In this document: one piece after another, positions 18,316 to 63,950 of the stretch
Layout of the letters: every line of letters begins with the position of its first letter
Numbering within the stretch: the stretch's first letter is position 1
Origin: Candidatus Levyibacteriota bacterium
GTDB lineage: Bacteria > Patescibacteriota > Microgenomatia > Levybacterales > GWA1-39-11
Assembly: GCA_039738415.1 (NCBI GenBank)
Contig: JBCLLY010000002.1
Span: 9,792 to 73,791 of the forward strand
Length of the DNA stretch: 64,000 bases
Direction of reading: 5' to 3'
Notes under the pieces: model-generated
Told to the model about the DNA's origin: nothing
What the model saw: only the letters and a program-made list of their open reading frames with translations
Database searches by the model: none
Translations under genes and position numbers: made by a program

Positions 18316-18388
18316 GGGCGACTAGCTCAATTGGTAGAGCAATTCCCTCTTAAGGAATCGGTTCAGGGTCCGAGTCCCTGGTCGCTCA
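18316..18388 (+). tRNA. tRNA-Lys(CUU) with atypical T loop (TCCGAGT, C at position 55)
   Basis: Acceptor GGGCGAC/GTCGCTC, anticodon arm ATTCC CTCTTAA GGAAT, T arm CAGGG TCCGAGT CCCTG. Confidence 0.8.
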
Positions 18389-18504
18389 CACTTTAACAAT
18401 CTCAGTGTTTCACACTGAGATTGTTGGAGATTGGTCGGGACGAGGAGTTTATCCCGCTGAGCAAAGCGAAGGAACTGAAAGCGGGAAGTCCCTGGTCGCT
18501 CACA
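18373..18504 (+). repeat. direct repeat of the tRNA-Lys 3' end flanking a structured 96-nt spacer
   Basis: AGTCCCTGGTCGCTCACA occurs at 18373-18390 and again at 18487-18504. The spacer holds a perfect 14-bp hairpin (18395-18425) and the motif GGGAC GAGGAGTTTAT CCCGC...GCGGG. Confidence 0.85.
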
Positions 18505-18568
18505 AAATTCCGCCGATATGCTTTAATATATTGACAGGAATGTTGAGATCAATGGTATAATATTTTAC

Positions 18569-18976
18569 ATGGTAAAAAACTCTACTTCAAACAAACCACT
18601 CTCAAAAGACGATTTGGATACAGCCCTTAAGGCATATGCAACTAAAGCAGATTTGAACAAAGCAGTTAAGGGCTCTGAAAGAATTTTAAGAGCTGAAATT
18701 CTAAAAGTTGAAGGAAAAGTAGAGAATGTTGAAGTTGTCCTGAAAAGACTTGAAGGAAAAGTAGAGAATGTTGAAGATGGTCTGAAAAGACTTGAAGGAA
18801 AAGTAGACAAAATGGATTCCACAATTGAAAAGATTTCAAATCAATTGGATGGTTTTGTTGGAAGAGTTGACGATTTAACCAACGATAACGAGATTGGCGC
18901 TGACCAAATTCATCGACTGCGTGAAGATGTTAAAGAACGCGGTAAAAGAATCGCAAAACTTGAATCCCCAAATTAA
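18569..18976 (+). CDS. coiled-coil protein with 14-aa (42-nt) tandem repeats
   Basis: Repeats read EGKVENVEVVLKRL / EGKVENVEDGLKRL / EGKVDKMD. TTGACA (18531-18536) and TGGTATAAT (18553-18561) sit 7 nt before the ATG, so the mRNA is apparently leaderless. Confidence 0.6.
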   Translation: MVKNSTSNKPLSKDDLDTALKAYATKADLNKAVKGSERILRAEILKVEGKVENVEVVLKRLEGKVENVEDGLKRLEGKVDKMDSTIEKISNQLDGFVGRVDDLTNDNEIGADQIHRLREDVKERGKRIAKLESPN

Positions 18977-19739: not shown

Positions 19740-20714
19740 ATGGATGAGAACGATCCTACGCTAACACAGGAAAGCACTCCGAATGCCACGTTGAATAACC
19801 TACCAGAAGAGAGGAAAACTTTTTTTAAAAAGAAAAAAGTAATGATAATTGCAGGAATCCTGCTGGCTCTTATTGTCGGGATTATTGCTTTTCTTCAATT
19901 GAGACAGAGTCCTGATACTGTTGCTAATCTCCCACCACCTGAACCTGAAAATGTGTTGCTCGCTACAGTAGGTGAGAAACAAATTTACTGGCGGGATGTT
20001 AACAATTTAGCCTTAGAGAATTATCTGGCGAGTGCCATTGATAACAACGTTCTGAAGTTGTATTTAAATATAGCAATTGAGCGAGCAATTCTTGATAAGG
20101 AGGCAGAGAGGCTTAAAATTAGTATAACTAGTGCTGAAATCGAATTGCGCAAGAAGTCAGCTGCAGCCAAGAAGACTGATTTACTCATTAAATACGACTT
20201 GCTAAAAGAGAAAGTGATGAAGGCTCAAATAAAAAATGTAGTCGCTTATACCGTTGGTTTTTGGATAGCCTCTTTTGATTACCCTCAATTACCCGAATAT
20301 ACCGTGCAAAGAGAGAAAGGTAAAATTGCACTTGCGGAAATCCAGCTTAAATTTATAGCGAATGAGAAAGCAGTTGACATCGCTAAGTACACGGCAGAAT
20401 CTTACCCAGAGCTAAGCGAGATTGTTGCGATAAATGGTCTAATTTATGTTAAAACAACAGATTTAAATCTATTGGAAAATCCCAGAACGTACACTCTTAA
20501 CCCCACAGATAAGGGTAAACCATATAATGATGATGAGGTGTTTGATGCTCTGTCGAAAATTAAAGCCGGGGAGGTTGTAAAAGTGGAGAGAAAAAATGGC
20601 TCCGGTGGAACTGTCATAAAGGCAGTATCAATAAATAACAGTGGATTTGCATCATATGAAGATTTTTTAACCGCACGTAAGAAAGAAATAGTTAAGATAA
20701 TAAGTAATTTATGA
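19740..20714 (+). CDS. membrane-anchored SurA/PpiD N-terminal-like chaperone-domain protein
   Basis: It has an N-terminal TM segment. VGEKQIYWRDVNNLALENYL...ILDKEAERLKISITSAEIE resembles the SurA N-terminal domain. No clear PPIase motif was seen. Confidence 0.4.
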   Translation: MDENDPTLTQESTPNATLNNLPEERKTFFKKKKVMIIAGILLALIVGIIAFLQLRQSPDTVANLPPPEPENVLLATVGEKQIYWRDVNNLALENYLASAIDNNVLKLYLNIAIERAILDKEAERLKISITSAEIELRKKSAAAKKTDLLIKYDLLKEKVMKAQIKNVVAYTVGFWIASFDYPQLPEYTVQREKGKIALAEIQLKFIANEKAVDIAKYTAESYPELSEIVAINGLIYVKTTDLNLLENPRTYTLNPTDKGKPYNDDEVFDALSKIKAGEVVKVERKNGSGGTVIKAVSINNSGFASYEDFLTARKKEIVKIISNL

Positions 20715-22243
20715 AAAGTGTTTTAATATTTGTATCATTCTTATTCACGGTCTTATCATTTCTAATTTTTCCAGGCGATGCGAATGCACAATGTGCAACT
20801 ATGCAGGGAACTATTGGAGGGTCTAATTTCCCTTCAGGGGGTAAAGTGGTAATAAAATGCGATGGGGACGATCCAGTCGGAGATTCAAATTGTGGTGGAA
20901 ACAGTGAGGCACTCGTACCAGGAGAAACGTATAATTTCCAGAATTGCAGTTGTCGTCTTGGAACTGGAAGATGTATGCAGGTGGTTTCAGTACCGACCGG
21001 ATGTACTTACAGTCTAACAGGTCAGATTTGTGGTACCAATGGTCAGACTAATTATCCTGATATAAGCGTTTCATGCCCTGCGCCTAGTACTCCATGTCCG
21101 AAGGGAAGAGGATATTGTGGCGATCCAAATGGCATTGGTGCCACGGATTGCACTTATGGAGCCGAGCCTGGTAGTTGGTTAAGTTCGCAGGGTTATACGG
21201 ATTGGTGTGCTGCTAATACAGGTGGTAGTACGAGTTATTGTTTCAATACTTGTAAACCTGCTCCAACTGCTACACCCACGCCTACGCCTACGCTTACACC
21301 CACAGCAACAGCCACCCCCACAAGTACACCCACATCATCACCCACCCCCACAAGTACTCCCGGGGCAACAGCCACTCCTACGAGGACACCTACGCCTACA
21401 AGTACGCCTGGTCCTACAAGTACGCCTGGTCCTACAAGCACGCCTAGACCTGTTTGTGGTGATCCATGTGCTATCAAAACTGAGTGTGATGGTGCAGCAT
21501 TAGGTTGTACAGAATGTCTTCTAAGTAGTGGGGGAGGGAAAACTTGCCAACCACTGGCTACGGGTACGCCTGTGCCGACAGCTACACCTCCTCCCGCACC
21601 TACGCCTACGCCTGACTTTAAAGAAGCTATGTGTAAGTGTGACCTAATGAATGTAGGGCAAATAACGATGGGGGAGCCTATTAAAATTGAGGCTTTCGCA
21701 AAAGTAGTAGGCGATGACGTCAAAAAAGCATATGTTAGAAATATGAATTTTAAGATTTACGAAGGCAACCCTTCTGGCGGAAGAAGGGTGCCTTTTATAG
21801 ATGAAGCCACACGGCCAGTAGATGTAGTAGGTAATTCGTCGGCAACCTTGGTGCGCTATAGAGCAGAGTGGACAGTTAGCCCTAATCAGATAAAAATAGG
21901 GGAAGAATATAGAATAGTCGCAACTCCGGATTGTGCTCCTAGAGTTGCGGCAATTCAACGTCAAAATCAGAGCGTAGTGCTTGCCGCAAGAGACGAAAAT
22001 ATTGGATTTTTCGAACAAATCGCAAACTTCTTTGCGGGACTTTTTGGGCAGGGTAGTGAGCCGGAAGATCAGGGTGTTCAGACAGCAGAGGAAGATCAGG
22101 GCCCACTTTCATTTATAACAAATTTCTTCAGACCTCAAACGGAAGTTAGGCGTCAGATTCAGATGCAAACATTTATTCCATCTCAAATGGAGAAAGAGGC
22201 TTGTAATATTGTGAAATTCAAATTTGACTTCATAGCTCAGTAA
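20711..22243 (+). CDS. secreted Cys-rich protein with a long Pro/Thr-rich linker
   Basis: It has a signal peptide, many Cys residues, and a PTATPTPTPTLTPTATATPTSTPTSSPTPTSTPG... low-complexity block (about 21250-21450 and 21555-21615). Confidence 0.6.
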   Translation: MKSVLIFVSFLFTVLSFLIFPGDANAQCATMQGTIGGSNFPSGGKVVIKCDGDDPVGDSNCGGNSEALVPGETYNFQNCSCRLGTGRCMQVVSVPTGCTYSLTGQICGTNGQTNYPDISVSCPAPSTPCPKGRGYCGDPNGIGATDCTYGAEPGSWLSSQGYTDWCAANTGGSTSYCFNTCKPAPTATPTPTPTLTPTATATPTSTPTSSPTPTSTPGATATPTRTPTPTSTPGPTSTPGPTSTPRPVCGDPCAIKTECDGAALGCTECLLSSGGGKTCQPLATGTPVPTATPPPAPTPTPDFKEAMCKCDLMNVGQITMGEPIKIEAFAKVVGDDVKKAYVRNMNFKIYEGNPSGGRRVPFIDEATRPVDVVGNSSATLVRYRAEWTVSPNQIKIGEEYRIVATPDCAPRVAAIQRQNQSVVLAARDENIGFFEQIANFFAGLFGQGSEPEDQGVQTAEEDQGPLSFITNFFRPQTEVRRQIQMQTFIPSQMEKEACNIVKFKFDFIAQ

Positions 22244-31755: not shown

Positions 31756-31913
31756 ATCTACATAGCGGGCAAATCTATTCTTGTCAGCCAAGGCTGATCC
31801 GCCTCTGGCGGAAGCTACTAGAGCATATGTTATATTTTACCTAAAAAAAATGTAATTTGAAAGTTTTTAAAGCCTAGCAGTTTTTTTAATATGATGCCAA
31901 GTCGGACTCCTTG

Positions 31914-35080: not shown

Positions 35081-35464
35081 TCGTCGAATGCAGGATAGCG
35101 TTTTCAATCTGATCAGTAAATCAGATATTCAACATTTATCCTCCTTCTCCTTACTTCAAAAAGCTATCGCTTTTTGACAAATTGCTTTGCAATTTAAACT
35201 ATCATTCCTCCTTACTTAATCCCGCTTTGCGGGATTAAGTGAACAAAAGCAGGCTGAAAAACCGAAGTTCGATTATATATCGAACAAAGGTCAAAGGCCT
35301 AAGCTCTTGCGTATATTCTAACGATTTCACCTTAAAAACACAATAAAGAGTTATTATAGGTTCAAAATCATAGGTTTAGTACTTGACAAAATTAATTTGA
35401 ACGTGCATATTAGTATGGTAAGTTCAATTGAACCTATTTGAACTGAAGGGGGGTGAATAACAAT

Positions 35465-37158: not shown

Positions 37159-37223
37159 ATTTACTATTATTAAAGCATTATCAATATTTTGTCAACCCCC
37201 TGTTTACCCCGTATATTTGAGTG

Positions 37224-37281
37224 TGGACTCGAGGGGATTCGAACCCCTAATCTGTCCGACGTACATCGGGCCGCTCTATAC
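37224..37281 (-). pseudogene. 3' tRNA fragment (D-arm 3' strand to discriminator), degenerate anticodon arm
   Basis: The minus strand reads TATAGAGCG GCCCGATGTACGTCGGAC AGATT AGGGG TTCGAAT CCCCT CGAGTCC A. No matching 5' acceptor strand is present nearby. Confidence 0.5.
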
Positions 37282-37341
37282 TGTGGACCGGATCCCGCTT
37301 AGCGGGACAACCCCTCCATTTTCGCCCCCTAGATTTAACTG

Positions 37342-38945: not shown

Positions 38946-39026
38946 GCCTGGGTGGTGGAATGGTATACACGCACGCCTTAAGAGCGTGTGGGGCAACTCA
39001 TGCGGGTTCGAGTCCCGCCCCAGGCA
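38946..39026 (+). tRNA. tRNA-Leu(UAA)
   Basis: Acceptor GCCTGGG/CCCAGGC, anticodon arm CACGC CTTAAGA GCGTG, long variable arm, T arm GCGGG TTCGAGT CCCGC. Confidence 0.85.
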
Positions 39027-39112
39027 CTTGAAATTCAATTGGGACGAGAAGTTTATCCTGCTGTGCCCGCCTCTGGAGGGAACGAAGTTGAAGGAAGTCC
39101 CGCCCCAGGCAC
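39011..39112 (+). repeat. direct repeat of the tRNA-Leu(UAA) 3' end flanking a 68-nt spacer with the GAGAAGTTTAT motif
   Basis: AGTCCCGCCCCAGGCAC occurs at 39011-39027 and again at 39096-39112. The spacer contains GGGAC GAGAAGTTTAT CCTGC (39041-39061). Confidence 0.85.
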
Positions 39113-39163
39113 ATGTCTATTTACTATTACCTACTACCTAATGTCTAATACCTATTCTCTAAA

Positions 39164-49393: not shown

Positions 49394-49522
49394 CGACTGA
49401 TTTAACAAAATCTTAAATTTCTCCGCCTGCTGCTGGACATGGATCCCCTTCGATTCGCTCAGGGTAAACGAACCGAGATAAACAGCTCCAAAGGCTATCC
49501 CGCCAATTTGTCTTTACCAGAG

Positions 49523-49593
49523 CTACCGGACTTGGATTCGAACCAAGATAAACAGCTCCAAAGGCTGTTGTCCTACCATTAGACGATCCGGTA
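49523..49593 (-). tRNA. tRNA-Gln(UUG)
   Basis: Acceptor TACCGGA/TCCGGTA gives U1:A72, with G73. Anticodon arm ACAGC CTTTGGA GCTGT, T arm CTTGG TTCGAAT CCAAG. Confidence 0.85.
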
Positions 49594-49793
49594 GCCCCAA
49601 CAAAGACAATCTTTAATTGGCGGGACCATTAGACCTGCCCGTAATGCCAACCATTGTTCTTACGTGGCGGGCGGGCGACATCCCAATATCAATTAATCAA
49701 GCGAGTATTAATTGAACTCAAATATTATATCAGCTAACGACTAATTTACCAAAAGTAGCTAACGCCTATAGATAACACCTACGAGGCGATAGT

Positions 49794-53187: not shown

Positions 53188-53381
53188 CACTTCGCTTCGT
53201 TCAGTGTAAACTGATTGAGTGAAAGCTTTGGTTTGTAAACTAAAGAATAATGAAGCTTGCTACTTTTAAAATTGCAACGCAATTTGTCATCCCTCCTAGG
53301 CGGGATGAAATGAGGAGAAATGACGAAGCGTAAAGGTTTTAAGCTCTGCTTAAAACCGCTAAGCGGAGTCCACTAGGACAC

Positions 53382-53662: not shown

Positions 53663-54301
53663 GTGGTAATTGATATACATATTCTTCTTGGTTCGGGACG
53701 CCTTCTTCCATACCAGAGTCAAATTAAAAATCGATTTGATAAATTAATCACAATAGTAAAAAAACAACTGTCGTTAGGCAATGTTGACGTAGTAGTTTAC
53801 GATAACCCTGAAGGTGCTATTCCTGAAATAGGGGTTGGAGGGTATTCGCCTAACGCACATTTAATTTTTATATCTCTTGATCCACAGTTTCCCAATTTTC
53901 AACAGACTATTGATGAAGAATTAAAACGAACAATAGCGCATGAATTACATCACACATTAAGGTGGAGAGATCCAGGATATGGAGAAACCTTATTTGAGGC
54001 GTTAATTACTGAAGGATTAGCTGACCATTTTGATATGGAAGTGAATAATATAGATAATCCTGAGCCTTGGGATACAGCTTTAAGCGACAAACAGCTAGTT
54101 GAGATTAAAGCTAAGGCGCAAAAAGAGTTTGATAATAAGAACTATAATCACAATGAATGGTTTTTTGGATACAAAGAAAAAAATATTCCAAGATGGGCCG
54201 GATATACATTAGGATTTAAACTCGTAGAAGATTATTTGAAAAGGAATCCACATAAAAAACCGTCACAACTCTATAGTGCTCACCCGGAAGATTTTAGATA
54301 A
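53663..54301 (+). CDS. predicted Zn-dependent peptidase (DUF2268/YjaZ-like, HExxH)
   Basis: IAHELHHTLRW...ALITEGLADHF. It has a GTG start 6 nt after TATACT. Confidence 0.55.
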   Translation: MVIDIHILLGSGRLLPYQSQIKNRFDKLITIVKKQLSLGNVDVVVYDNPEGAIPEIGVGGYSPNAHLIFISLDPQFPNFQQTIDEELKRTIAHELHHTLRWRDPGYGETLFEALITEGLADHFDMEVNNIDNPEPWDTALSDKQLVEIKAKAQKEFDNKNYNHNEWFFGYKEKNIPRWAGYTLGFKLVEDYLKRNPHKKPSQLYSAHPEDFR

Positions 54302-54331
54302 TTAGTTTCTAATAAATAAAAGTCGATCCCT

Positions 54332-54498
54332 ACTTCTCGCCCTGCGCTATGTAGGGTGCAACAGCAAACACTAAGTTTATCGAAGTGTGGGCGCTAGAGG
54401 GCTCCCCGATGTTCATCGGGATAAACTTCTCGCCCTCAACTATGTAGGTTGCAACAGCAAACACTGAGTTTATCTAAAGTGTGGGCGCTAGAGGGCTC
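54332..54498 (-). repeat. two-copy tandem repeat (period about 93-94 nt) of the tRNA-Val(UAC) 3' end plus trailer
   Basis: Units 54332-54404 and 54425-54498 differ at about 7 positions. Each ends (tRNA sense: begins) with GAGCCCTCTAGCGCCCACACTT. They are separated by the hairpin CCCGATGAACATCGGG. Confidence 0.85.
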
Positions 54499-54554
54499 GA
54501 ACCCCTGACATTTTCGGTGTAAACGAAACGCTCTACCAGCTGAGCTAAGCGCCC
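54482..54554 (-). tRNA. tRNA-Val(UAC)
   Basis: Acceptor GGGCGCT/AGCGCCC, anticodon arm TTTCG TTTACAC CGAAA, T arm AGGGG TTCGAGC CCTCT. Confidence 0.85.
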
Positions 54555-54639
54555 GACGTCAAAATTAATTTCGCACGTTCGTTTATCGCAAAGCAATAAA
54601 CTTTTCACTCAATCAGTTTACACTGAACGAAGTGAAGTG

Positions 54640-54712
54640 TGCTGAGACCAGGAATCGAACCCGGATAACTTGTTCTTCAGACAAGCGCCTTGACCAACTT
54701 GGCAATCTCAGC
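54640..54712 (-). tRNA. tRNA-Phe(GAA)
   Basis: Acceptor GCTGAGA/TCTCAGC, anticodon arm CTTGT CTGAAGA ACAAG, T arm CCGGG TTCGATT CCTGG. The D arm is atypical (GCCAAGTTGGTCAAGGC). Confidence 0.75.
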
Positions 54713-54824
54713 ATGACTATTGGTTTTTATCAAAAAACTACTTTTAGAATTATACAAAAAGTTAAGCTCAATATCCATATGAACTAATGCATGATGCTAA
54801 AATTGAGGCTATTTGTAAAGGTGT

Positions 54825-58980: not shown

Positions 58981-59023
58981 ATGGTGTAATCCCGCCTGGC
59001 GGGGAAGAAAGGAGGTGTTAAAT

Positions 59024-59302: not shown

Positions 59303-59483
59303 GCGCGCATAGCTCAGTGGTAGAGTACTTCATTGACACCTGCCCGCTATGTACTTGGATCTATAGCTCAGTTGGTTAGAGCGTTGCATTGACATTGCAA
59401 AGGTCAGTGGTTCGAGTCCACTTAGATCCACAAGCAAGGCAGGCGGGTCGAAGGGGTCCATGGTTCAAACCCATGTGCGCGCA
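59303..59483 (+). tRNA. tRNA-Val(GAC) interrupted after the anticodon loop by a 109-nt insert (outer gene)
   Basis: The 5' half 59303-59339 and 3' half 59449-59483 share a 7/7 acceptor stem (GCGCGCA/TGCGCGC), an anticodon loop TTGACAC and a T arm CATGG TTCAAAC CCATG. Joined, they give 72 nt. Confidence 0.65.
59357..59430 (+). tRNA. tRNA-Val(GAC) (inner gene, complete)
   Basis: Acceptor GGATCTA/TAGATCC, anticodon arm TTGCA TTGACAT TGCAA, T arm AGTGG TTCGAGT CCACT. Confidence 0.85.
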
Positions 59484-59547
59484 CTACTCCAAGGTCATCC
59501 CGCTAAGGGGGATCAGGCGAGCATTTTTAATTTTTAATTATTCTTCA

Positions 59548-62210: not shown

Positions 62211-62416
62211 ATATGTCAAAAAATAAGATAAAAATTAAAAAATCAGTTAGAAACCGTTTTAGGGTAACTAAAAACGGAAAGGTGCTTCGTGGAAGCCAAA
62301 ATCTTTCACATTTACGTTCAAAACACTCAAAAAGAACTTTGAGACGCATGAAGGAGCCAAAGCAACTTGAAGGCAAATTCGCAAAAAAAATAAAACAAAT
62401 GCTCGCAATGGCATAG
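62207..62416 (+). CDS. rpmI: 50S ribosomal protein L35
   Basis: KIKIKKSVRNRFRVTKNGKVLRGSQNLSHLRSKHSKR. It has an ATGA overlap with the infC stop. Confidence 0.9.
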   Translation: MNMSKNKIKIKKSVRNRFRVTKNGKVLRGSQNLSHLRSKHSKRTLRRMKEPKQLEGKFAKKIKQMLAMA

Positions 62417-62493
62417 CTAGAAACTAGATGCTAGAAGCTAGATACTAGAAACTAGAAACTGGATACTGAATACTGAATACTGAATACTGAATA
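62417..62493 (+). repeat. eleven tandem heptamers filling the rpmI-rplT spacer
   Basis: CTAGAAA CTAGATG CTAGAAG CTAGATA CTAGAAA CTAGAAA CTGGATA CTGAATA x4, then T and ATG (62495). Confidence 0.85.
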
Positions 62494-62891: not shown

Positions 62892-63950
62892 GTGGAAGAA
62901 GAATTACTGAATATAAAAAATAACGCGATGGCGCTTCTCATGGAGGCAGAAAGTCTCCCTGAGGTAAATCAGATTTATATTCAATTTCTAGGAAAAAACG
63001 GAAATTTGACCAAAGAATTGAAAAATCTTAAAAAAGTTCCTGAGCAAAAGCGTCCCGAAGTGGGAAAGCTTGCAAACGAAATAAAACTTACTCTGGAAAA
63101 TATCATTAACGATAAAAAAAATGACTTAAAACAAGGCAAGAACGATGAAAGGGCAAAAAAAATGGATATAACCCGTCCCGGTGTAAAACAGGAATTAGGC
63201 TCACTGCATTTGGTAACTCAAGCAATAAGAGAAATTTCACAAATTTTTGAAAGTATAGGATTTGAGCGTGTCCGTTATCCCGAAGTCGAATGGGACTGGT
63301 ATGCATTTGAGGCTCTAAATTTTCCCGAAAATCACCCGGCAAGAGACGCGTGGGAAACGTTTTTTATCGATGTAAAAGCAGATGCAAAAATGGGACCAAT
63401 GATACTTACTCCACACACCTCATCAGGTCAAGTGAGGGAGATGTTAAGTAGTGCAAAATCCCGCCCAGCGGGACATAAAACATCAATCCGGATGCTTAAC
63501 CTTGCAAAATGTTACAGAAGGCAAAGTGACGTTTCACATACTGAGATGTTCCACCAGTTTGAGGGATTAGTGGTTGATGAGGATATCACAATCGGACACT
63601 TAAAGGGAGTTCTGGAATACTTTGTGAAATCCTACTTTGGGCAAAACAGAACTTCAAGAATTAGACCTTATCAATTTCAATTTACCGAGCCGTCCTTTGA
63701 GGTTGATATAAGCTGTGGAATTTGCAATGGCAAAGGATGCAAGTTGTGCAAGGAGGGCTGGGTAGAGCTAGGAGGCGCAGGAATGGTTCACCCAAATGTT
63801 TTACGTGCAGGAAAAATCGACCCTGGAAAATACACCGGATTTGCTTTTGGCTGGGGAGTAGAACGCGTTCTTATGATGAAAGAGGGGCTGAGTTTGCCTG
63901 ATTTAAGGCTCATTTATTCAAACAGAATAGAGTTTTTAAAACAGTTTTAG
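62892..63950 (+). CDS. pheS: phenylalanyl-tRNA synthetase alpha subunit
   Basis: FPENHPARDAWETFFI, HTSSGQVR and GFAFGWGVERV motifs. It has a GTG start 7 nt after TATAAT (62879-62884). Confidence 0.9.
   Translation: MEEELLNIKNNAMALLMEAESLPEVNQIYIQFLGKNGNLTKELKNLKKVPEQKRPEVGKLANEIKLTLENIINDKKNDLKQGKNDERAKKMDITRPGVKQELGSLHLVTQAIREISQIFESIGFERVRYPEVEWDWYAFEALNFPENHPARDAWETFFIDVKADAKMGPMILTPHTSSGQVREMLSSAKSRPAGHKTSIRMLNLAKCYRRQSDVSHTEMFHQFEGLVVDEDITIGHLKGVLEYFVKSYFGQNRTSRIRPYQFQFTEPSFEVDISCGICNGKGCKLCKEGWVELGGAGMVHPNVLRAGKIDPGKYTGFAFGWGVERVLMMKEGLSLPDLRLIYSNRIEFLKQF

Follow-up and report, generated by a model that had tools for sequence, protein, structure and literature searches.

A folded module beside tRNA genes, possibly a miniature tRNA-specific insertion element, in a Levyibacteriota contig and in several bacterial phyla

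tRNA genes are classic landing sites for mobile DNA, used as far as is known by kilobase elements that bring their own integrases. The direct repeats flanking such tRNA-borne islands reportedly run from the T loop to the 3′ end of the gene, and comparable flanking direct repeats accompany the asn-tRNA and leuX islands. Among smaller elements, miniature inverted-repeat transposable elements (MITEs) carry terminal inverted repeats and duplicate 2–10 bp of their target, while elements with ends of the IS200/IS605 type duplicate no target, have hairpins at both ends with guides located 5′ of each hairpin, use bases beside the hairpin to pair with the target or cleavage site, and can be mobilised in trans. 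Tycheposon islands are accompanied by scattered partial tRNAs, explained as integration remnants, and no motif like the one presented here was described for them (bioRxiv 10.1101/2020.12.28.424599). Here we analysed 64,000 nt (hereafter the window) of a Candidatus Levyibacteriota bacterium (GCA_039738415.1, contig JBCLLY010000002.1, positions 9,792 to 73,791 of the forward strand), in which the gene for tRNA-Val(UAC) is followed by a tandem repeat of its own 3′ end together with a small, conserved, folded module. With a confidence that stops a little short of even, we read this locus as a miniature non-autonomous insertion element present in a complete and a decayed copy.

The locus lies on the minus strand, where an intact tRNA-Val(UAC) gene (54481–54554; ARAGORN, and 66.4 bits against the Rfam tRNA family) with the T loop TTCGAGC and without encoded CCA ends in the 18 nt GAGCCCTCTAGCGCCCAC (F, 54481–54498, from G57 to the discriminator plus one C), which form the first copy of a direct repeat. 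In the sense of the tRNA there follow a 43-nt trailer or spacer (X, 54438–54480) holding an ACACT...AGTGT hairpin, the strand GAGGGC (54432–54437), an 11-nt conserved bulge GAGAAGTTTAT (54421–54431; family consensus GAGAAG-YYTRT) and the hairpin CCCGATG-AA-CATCGGG, i.e., CCCGATGAACATCGGG (P2, 54405–54420). The second copy of the tRNA 3′ end (F′, 54387–54404, by direct alignment) is laid out as a junction GA, the strand GCCCTC, whose complement is GAGGGC and with which it forms a second helix (P1), and TAGCGCCCAC. F′ also opens a second unit, whose remainder (54332–54386) consists of a diverged trailer and of remnants of P1 and of the core, as we also call the conserved bulge. Direct alignment places GAGCCCTCTAGCGCCCAC at 54498–54481 and again at 54404–54387, a period of exactly 94 nt, and thus bears out the tandem duplication of tRNA 3′ end plus trailer that had been reported from the letters alone (the sequence-only reading). 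The first unit measures 94 nt, and the second, diverged and truncated to 73 nt (54404 to about 54332), differs from it by one 1-nt indel and about six substitutions and stops after GGGCGAGAAGT (54342–54332; P1 GGGC at 54339–54342, core GAGAAGT at 54332–54338), without hairpin and without a third tRNA copy. Note that this 94-nt array is absent from the output of Tandem Repeats Finder at its thresholds. When single sequences were folded, the support was weak or inconsistent, with z between −3.1 and +0.2, and in a fold of 235 nt the 5′ strand of the tRNA was able to close on either 3′-end copy. As a separate observation, GATAAACT, present in the trailers of both units (54454–54461 and 54361–54368, minus strand), could pair with the core AGTTTATC, to which it is complementary; such pairing, seen at the Val locus only, would create there a nested topology resembling that of the hepatitis delta virus (HDV) ribozyme.

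The same module stands behind two other tRNA genes of the window, both on the plus strand. A covariance model trained on 33 copies, the three window copies among them, matched the Val locus at 54385–54441 (minus, 62.3 bits), the region after tRNA-Lys(CUU) (gene 18316–18389, match 18432–18505, 53.6 bits) and the region after tRNA-Leu(UAA) (gene 38946–39027, match 39036–39114, 55.3 bits). As training copies, the three scored 62, 55 and 54 bits with E-values from 1e-14 to 3e-12, while the next-best match in the 64 kb, at 15 bits, was a tRNA T arm. The Lys match starts 43 nt past the tRNA end, with the core GAG at 53 nt, and reads GGGAC, GAGGAGTTTAT as core, hairpin, AA and GTCCCTGGTCGCTCAC; the Leu match starts at 9 nt, with the core GAG at 19 nt, and reads GGGAC, GAGAAGTTTAT, hairpin, AA and GTCCCGCCCCAGGCAC. 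The sequence-only reading had described for both loci the partner GGGAC and a parallel structure, as well as a constant core flanked by a stem, and these statements are confirmed. The P2 interiors of the three copies are unrelated. The window itself is AT-rich chromosomal DNA (36.6% G+C) with genes for UvrA, UvrB, a Mur ligase, trigger factor, IF3 and PheS, and with 16 scattered tRNA genes, one of which only (tRNA-Gly GCC) encodes its CCA. The module occurs at 3 of these 16 tRNAs, and displaced or nested tRNA fragments at 3 others.

The architecture is not confined to this genome. An exact scan with the pattern CGAGRAGTTTATCCYG over one genome per species gave at least 120 matching loci, and among the 120 listed, at least 65 display the whole architecture, about half of the listed matches being chance occurrences inside genes. 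Its parts come in the order of a short complement of the tRNA copy, GAGAAGUUUAU, a variable hairpin, AA or GA, and the tRNA copy. The P1 5′ strand comprises the few bases that complement what comes 3′ of the hairpin, and GAGAAGTTTAT follows it; P2, whose base CCYG/CRGG is conserved, varies in length from 11 to about 60 nt, its free interior spanning between 3 and about 55 nt; and the AA or GA leads into an exact 3′-end copy, 17–19 nt long from T-loop nucleotide 57 or 58 onwards, of the tRNA lying just upstream on the same strand. Among 67 tRNA-proximal copies, all on the strand of their tRNA and distributed over 21 isoacceptor types, the distance from tRNA end to core ranges from 9 to 115 nt (median 53), and the repeat starts at nucleotide 58 in 34 copies and at nucleotide 57 in 17. 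It ends within 4 nt of the discriminator in 32 of the 67, with unrelated sequence beyond; in 11 it extends partway into the trailer, in another 11 the entire unit is tandemly repeated, and in 13 the copy is diverged or cut. The inserts between tRNA copies measure 60–150 nt, and minimal copies of the module about 50 nt. Carriers are mainly Bacteroidota, together with Chlorobiota, a Synechococcus (Cyanobacteriota), a Fimbriimonadales metagenome-assembled genome (MAG; Armatimonadota), two MAGs of the Candidate Phyla Radiation and MAGs labelled Gammaproteobacteria. At gathering threshold, Rfam 15 found 16 tRNAs in the whole window and nothing else, and at E ≤ 10 it returned tRNAs and noise alone for 54250–54750 and for a canonical locus (L102, 3900–4300); a full-text search of the open-access literature, including the exact core sequence on both strands, located no description of the module. 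The element family is widespread, and no description of it was located in Rfam 15 or in the searchable open-access literature.

Our alignment of 33 copies from 21 different isoacceptors showed that both helices covary. They are 86.5% paired, compared with 73.7% in column shuffles, none of 500 of which reached the observed value, and pairing fell to 28–50% when the 3′ partners were slid out of register. Both sides of the pair have changed at 7 of the 12 pairs over the two helices; P1 by itself is 87% paired, with such changes at 4 of its 6 pairs. At pair 9-66, for instance, AU (21 copies) alternates with GC (9), and at pair 24-60 CG (23) alternates with UA (9). In addition, the P1 5′ strand forms on average 4.7 contiguous Watson-Crick pairs with its own tRNA copy versus 2.6 with those of other loci (permutation test, p ≤ 5e-5), and at L091, L094 and L112 it complements 13–16 nt of the tRNA copy. 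The earlier claim that the 5′ stem strand tracks the host tRNA is confirmed by these figures, the compensatory relation with the host T arm being present in this larger collection of loci, and a structure-dependent element, not a random duplication, was the right description. Little or no variation is seen in the bulge and in the five bases that open P2 (CCYGA), irrespective of what lies opposite, a conservation that for the bulge is partly built in since the retrieval pattern covered the core and CCYG. Copies had been retrieved by the exact core pattern, so independent evidence comes only from those found by the covariance model without the pattern; they give the core consensus GAGAAG-YYTRT, with the variants TTTAT, CCTAT, CCTGT and TCTAT. 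The near-universal pairs of P1 are the inner four only (GGRC/GYCC) and are partly generic to the targeted type of T loop. Because the displaced copy and the T arm of the tRNA are identical, either may be the partner of the P1 5′ strand, and the data fit both equally. It should be added that the complementarity could have been laid down by the insertion mechanism instead of by selection maintaining a fold.

The choice of host tRNA is narrow. The T loop of the host tRNA is TTCGAGT, TTCGAGC or TCCGAGT (YYCGAG[TC]) in 64 of 64 cases, against 14 of 63 module-less tRNAs from the same loci (Fisher p 9e-23). In the window, the module follows 3 of the 4 tRNAs with this loop and none of the 12 others; the fourth, which lacks it, is a tRNA-Val(GAC) in a nested arrangement. 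One locus (L267) has the variant core GAGAAGCCTGT after a tRNA-Gly with the loop TTCGAAC, and there the copy begins with AAC and P1 is GGT/ACC. We propose, at odds again just below even, that the target of the element would be tRNA genes whose T loop ends in CGAGY.

The occurrence of the module is patchy. In an unbiased sample of 80 metagenomic loci picked by EF-Tu similarity alone, the gene of which lies in Bacteroidota between a tRNA-Thr cluster and tRNA-Trp-secE, the module was found at 2 loci. Five relatives (L242, L243, L244, L245 and L247) have an empty spacer of 13–57 nt from tRNA-Trp to secE, and in the same spacer L248 carries one unit (P2 CCTGAGCGTAGTCAAAGG) and L267 two (P2 CCCGATGCATATCGGG). 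In L248, the 13 nt from the displaced copy to the secE start equal in length the full 13–15-nt spacer of L242, L243 and L245, from which it follows that the displaced copy plus what comes after it represents the native junction, and that everything between the tRNA copies, X included, is inserted DNA. In L267, P2 CCCGATGCATATCGGG is identical after tRNA-Trp and after tRNA-Gly, with two units at each and an unrelated X, and P1 is suited to each tRNA (GAGAC/GTCTC for Trp versus GGT/ACC for Gly). Colonisation is thus heavy in some genomes, that of the window included, and lacking in their close relatives; arrays of 2–4 units are frequent (L008, L017, L019, L063, L082, L100–L102 and L105), as are truncated or internally deleted copies (L022, L047, L055, L062, L069 and the window).

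Compared with the systems described so far, the module shares with P4-type islands and tycheposons a direct repeat of the tRNA 3′ end that starts in the T loop, a gene restored by the incoming copy, and successive units that push older ones outward so that degenerate remnants pile up; in contrast to islands, its insert of 60–150 nt codes for nothing and carries a conserved bulged hairpin. Like integron attC sites and the CTX-phage attP(+) site used by XerCD, it has two short helices split by unpaired or extrahelical bases, a terminal hairpin free in length and sequence, arrays beside one entry site and a unit without genes. Unlike attC, it has no GTTRRRY/RYYYAAC boxes (GGRC...GYCC and GAGAAGYYTRT stand instead) and no IntI nearby, its entry site is the tRNA T loop with a 17–19-nt target duplication, and its single-strand state is presumed. 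With IS200/IS605 ends, palindrome-associated transposable elements (PATEs), and repetitive extragenic palindromes (REPs) or bacterial interspersed mosaic elements (BIMEs) served by REP-associated tyrosine transposases (RAYTs), it has in common small hairpin units and a lineage-dependent load, and would likewise pair a few bases beside the hairpin with its target and be mobilised in trans; it differs from the IS200/IS605 type by a hairpin at one end only and by the 17–19-nt duplication, and from REP sequences, which are species-specific, by a core common to several phyla. A MITE is likewise a poor match, since the left end of the unit is the locus-specific trailer and the duplication concerns 17–19 nt of a fixed target. 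As for theta ribozymes and tRNA 3′ external spacers, the module is a structured RNA candidate downstream of a tRNA; it differs from the theta ribozyme of phages, an HDV-like nested double pseudoknot (P1/P1.1/P2/P3/P4) that begins at the cleavage site, in giving no Rfam ribozyme match at E ≤ 10, in showing a P2-like pairing at the Val locus only, and in lying 9–115 nt from the tRNA end, often with a terminator in between. In a CRISPR array the ‘spacers’ would not be constant and equal to the tRNA end as they are here, and no cas or transposition genes were found among the window ORFs scanned or among the neighbours shared by the loci. Judged by eye, the hammerhead, hairpin, pistol, twister, leadzyme and HDV-like ribozymes have no defining core or topology that fits, the HDV-like pseudoknot relying on trailer sequence present at the Val locus alone. 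Reverse transcription of a mature tRNA was set aside, as copies of genes without an encoded CCA have none either. Finally, the MRSC-65-2 repeat (Narunsky et al. 2024; PMC11109978) is described as one long stem that recurs dozens of times in a genome, the text consulted mentions no tRNA association for it, and it does not appear to be the same element.

The fixed-target duplication, the dependence on the T loop, the folded end, the patchiness, the multiplication, the arrays with their decay, and the lack of a linked gene led us to prefer a small insertion element over a host RNA gene. What is observed is an insert bracketed by direct copies of the last 17–19 nt of the tRNA, which leaves the gene intact with its native 3′ end displaced downstream, and whose right end is the conserved folded module, made of P1, the 10–11-nt bulge GAGAAGYYURU and the hairpin P2 of free length. 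The module, as single-stranded DNA or as RNA, would be the cis-acting site of an enzyme acting in trans, which may be a host recombinase or nuclease or be encoded by another element, and the tRNA would be chosen by P1 pairing plus the CGAGYCC target; such use of a fold would have its nearest known parallels in IS200/IS605 ends, integron attC sites and the hairpin of CTX-phage attP. With conserved tRNA sequence on either side, the insert could also spread among related genomes through homologous or homology-facilitated recombination, which would account for the difference between the tRNA-proximal trailer or terminator and the one beyond the displaced copy. The 94-nt tandem at the Val locus may then result from (i) a second insertion or (ii) unequal crossing-over between the repeats, the distal unit having probably been truncated later by deletion.

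Several points weigh against this insertion element. We found no two sequences that differ solely in having or lacking the element, so that insertion is deduced from related, not isogenic, loci. Leaving aside the P2 of L267, copies of the same genome have nothing in common but the 11-nt core and the base of P2, which is not what a recently active repeat family would show. The core hardly varies from phylum to phylum, and in related Flavobacteriia similar P2 sequences persist at the same tRNAs with diverging X; this constancy and retention could reflect a host-level function and vertical inheritance. The wobble pairs give no strand signal over all pairs (14 G-T versus 12 A-C; within P2, 5 and 0). 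An element carrying the 3′ end of one tRNA must rebuild that end and P1 for another tRNA, and insertion leaves the spread over 21 isoacceptors without explanation. No enzyme acting on the element has been identified. On the side of a gene-less, non-autonomous element, an all-against-all comparison of the open reading frames (ORFs) around 69 loci returned as shared only syntenic housekeeping genes and unrelated short-chain dehydrogenase paralogues, with no integrase or other recombinase among the shared neighbours, and the 30 ORFs scanned from the window matched housekeeping Pfam families or nothing, with no recombinase, transposase or reverse transcriptase family. No mobile carrier emerged either: the core-pattern scan of IMG/VR yielded 1 true copy among the 120 matches listed, the 119 others being chance matches in coding sequence; one 55-nt representative query had no BLAST match in plasmids; and BLAST of the Val locus against phages showed similarity to tRNA-Val alone.

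A somewhat unlikely, yet serious, alternative is that the module is a cis-acting structured RNA of the host, co-transcribed with the tRNA or the operon downstream as a processing, stability or insulation signal, e.g., a partial mimic of the acceptor/T-arm minihelix for RNase P, RNase Z or RNase E, the tRNA-end copy being then a by-product of origin by partial gene duplication. The covariation of both helices around an invariant purine-rich bulge is what such an RNA would show, and the bulge AAG/UUUAU would fit the loose preference of RNase E. In L091, L094 and L112 the stem reaches a minihelix-like 13–16 bp; copies lie within housekeeping operons (tRNA-Thr to tuf, tRNA-Trp to secE-nusG); and in the window no terminator is predicted from the promoter-like site of the Phe-Val tRNAs to the array. 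However, at most Bacteroidota loci a terminator-like hairpin with a T run, recognised by eye, stands between tRNA and module, and the acceptor part is mostly unpaired beyond 4–6 bp. Presence at 2 of the 80 unbiased orthologous loci, with subtypes differing at the same site, as well as frequent tandem arrays and broken copies and the lack of an Rfam family match, also argue against it.

We consider it distinctly unlikely that the units are scars of phages or islands with P4-type integrases, which entered the T-loop region together with a tRNA-end copy of their own and were later mostly deleted, so that attL, a stub of the far arm and attR remain. The repeat of 17–19 nt from T loop to 3′ end is indeed like those flanking tRNA-borne islands, repeated integration explains the arrays, and an element strand that complements the core calls to mind the inverted core-type sites of integrases. 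Nevertheless, the complementary strands are 30–90 nt apart, not 6–8; at about 65 loci no gene-bearing element intervenes between tRNA and module, which are separated by at most 115 nt or by a multiple of the unit; the shared neighbours include no integrase; and the module is nearly absent from viral contigs (1 of the 120 listed matches), with one plasmid query empty. An identical 11-mer would have to outlast independent deletions in five phyla, and the uniform miniaturisation would be left unexplained. A guide-RNA-like unit, in which the hairpin is the ‘repeat’ and about 17 nt identical to the tRNA gene are the guide, as in the delocalised homing CRISPR RNAs of type V-K CRISPR-associated transposons or the 3′ guide of the TnpB omega RNA, and which an RNA-guided system would have left behind or would use, seems very improbable to us. 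Type V-K systems are said to home to tRNA genes with short spacers, and the order of handle, hairpin, 1–2 nt and 17–19 nt equal to the neighbouring tRNA recalls such a guide; against this, no genes for Cas12k or Tns and none of TnpB or IscB size were found in the window or shared among loci, the carrier phyla include ones where such transposons are not known, the adjacent intact tRNA would be self-targeted, and the first 4–6 guide positions are paired in cis, unlike those of known guides. A purely local event, in which the 3′ region of tRNA-Val was duplicated in tandem and the hairpins arose by chance, is close to untenable: slippage could yield the 94-nt array, but a covarying module at two further tRNAs of the window and at no fewer than 65 loci elsewhere refutes it as a full account.

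A module of 50–100 nt would be a new and very economical exploitation of tRNA sites, provided that it recognises one T-loop type, preserves the gene through its 17–19-nt duplication and fits one of its strands to each host tRNA. The module accounts for ‘partial tRNA’ repeats that annotation pipelines ignore or take for integration scars, and serves as a marker for tRNA-locus turnover in reduced genomes such as that of the window; should the pairing be mechanistic, it would be a candidate principle of programmable targeting. Going further, we think it unlikely, though worth stating, that there is a whole class of gene-less mobile elements in at least five bacterial phyla that target the T loop, draw specificity from base pairing with the tRNA gene or transcript, and act as a recombination site or as a catalytic RNA. 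Under such a proposal, either the folded single strand would be a recombination site for a ubiquitous host enzyme, or a small catalytic RNA would join to a tRNA 3′ fragment and be copied back into DNA, and the same turnover would also have given rise to the tRNA-in-tRNA and fragment arrays elsewhere in the window.

Other tRNA genes of the window show rearrangements of their own. At 59303–59484 (plus), a tRNA lies within a tRNA: 59303–59339 and 59449–59484 together make a perfect 73-nt cloverleaf of tRNA-Val(GAC), split after nucleotide 38 by 109 nt that hold a complete, different tRNA-Val(GAC) (59357–59431), with CTGCC/GGCAG as flanks. A tRNA-Gln(UUG) (49522–49593, minus, within 49430–49700) lies between the inverted repeats CCCGCCAATT/AATTGGCGGG and also between the decayed halves of an older Gln-like tRNA, the T loop of which bears a TTTAC-CCTGAGCGAATCGAAGG hairpin nearly identical to a common P2 type of Flavobacteriia. 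At 37200–37341 (minus), tRNA-Ala(GGC) is followed by a divergent module (GGGGGCGAAAATGGAGGGGTTGT-CCCGCTAAGCGGG-AT-CCGGTCCAC) and, past it, by a T-arm-plus-acceptor fragment of another Ala allele, GGGGTTCGAATCCCCTCGAGTCCAC. These nested Val(GAC), Gln and Ala arrangements point to a broader process, with the canonical module as one of its outcomes, whereby DNA that brings in tRNA sequence displaces parts of resident genes.

Repeats of several other kinds were noted. Trailers recur at 54596–54638 (minus), 53189–53250 (plus), 18390–18430 (plus) and 54438–54480 (minus): those of Phe and Leu(GAG) have about 35 nt in common (ACTTCNCTTCGTTCAGTGTAAACTGATTGAGTGAAA), those of Val and Lys share ACTTTA...CTCAGTGTTT, and all form a CACACT/AGTGT hairpin that takes in the last tRNA bases. 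The 12-mer GCCCGCTATGTA is identical at 31759–31770 (minus) and 59342–59353 (plus); each time a tRNA gene begins 3–4 nt further downstream, tRNA-Arg(UCU) in the first case and the inner tRNA-Val(GAC) in the second. Palindromic ATCCCGC-N3-4-GCGGGAT hairpins (35216–35238, 37294–37306, 58991–59003, 59499–59511 and 63460–63472) resemble a REP-like or terminator family, and also the base of P2. In L267 (2228–2460, plus), a tRNA-linked repeat of another kind comes after a tRNA-Thr(GGU) whose T loop is TTCAATT: its two units measure about 114 nt, and both terminate in the palindrome GCCTGCCTGCCGGCAGGCAGG, to which a copy of the full T arm plus acceptor strand is joined. Lastly, the window contains a 42-nt tandem repeat (18708–18807) inside the ORF 18569–18976, proline/threonine-rich repeats of 18–30 nt (21270–21445) inside the ORF 20711–22243, and the heptamer repeats CTAGAAA and ACTGAAT at 62416–62493, between infC and pheS.

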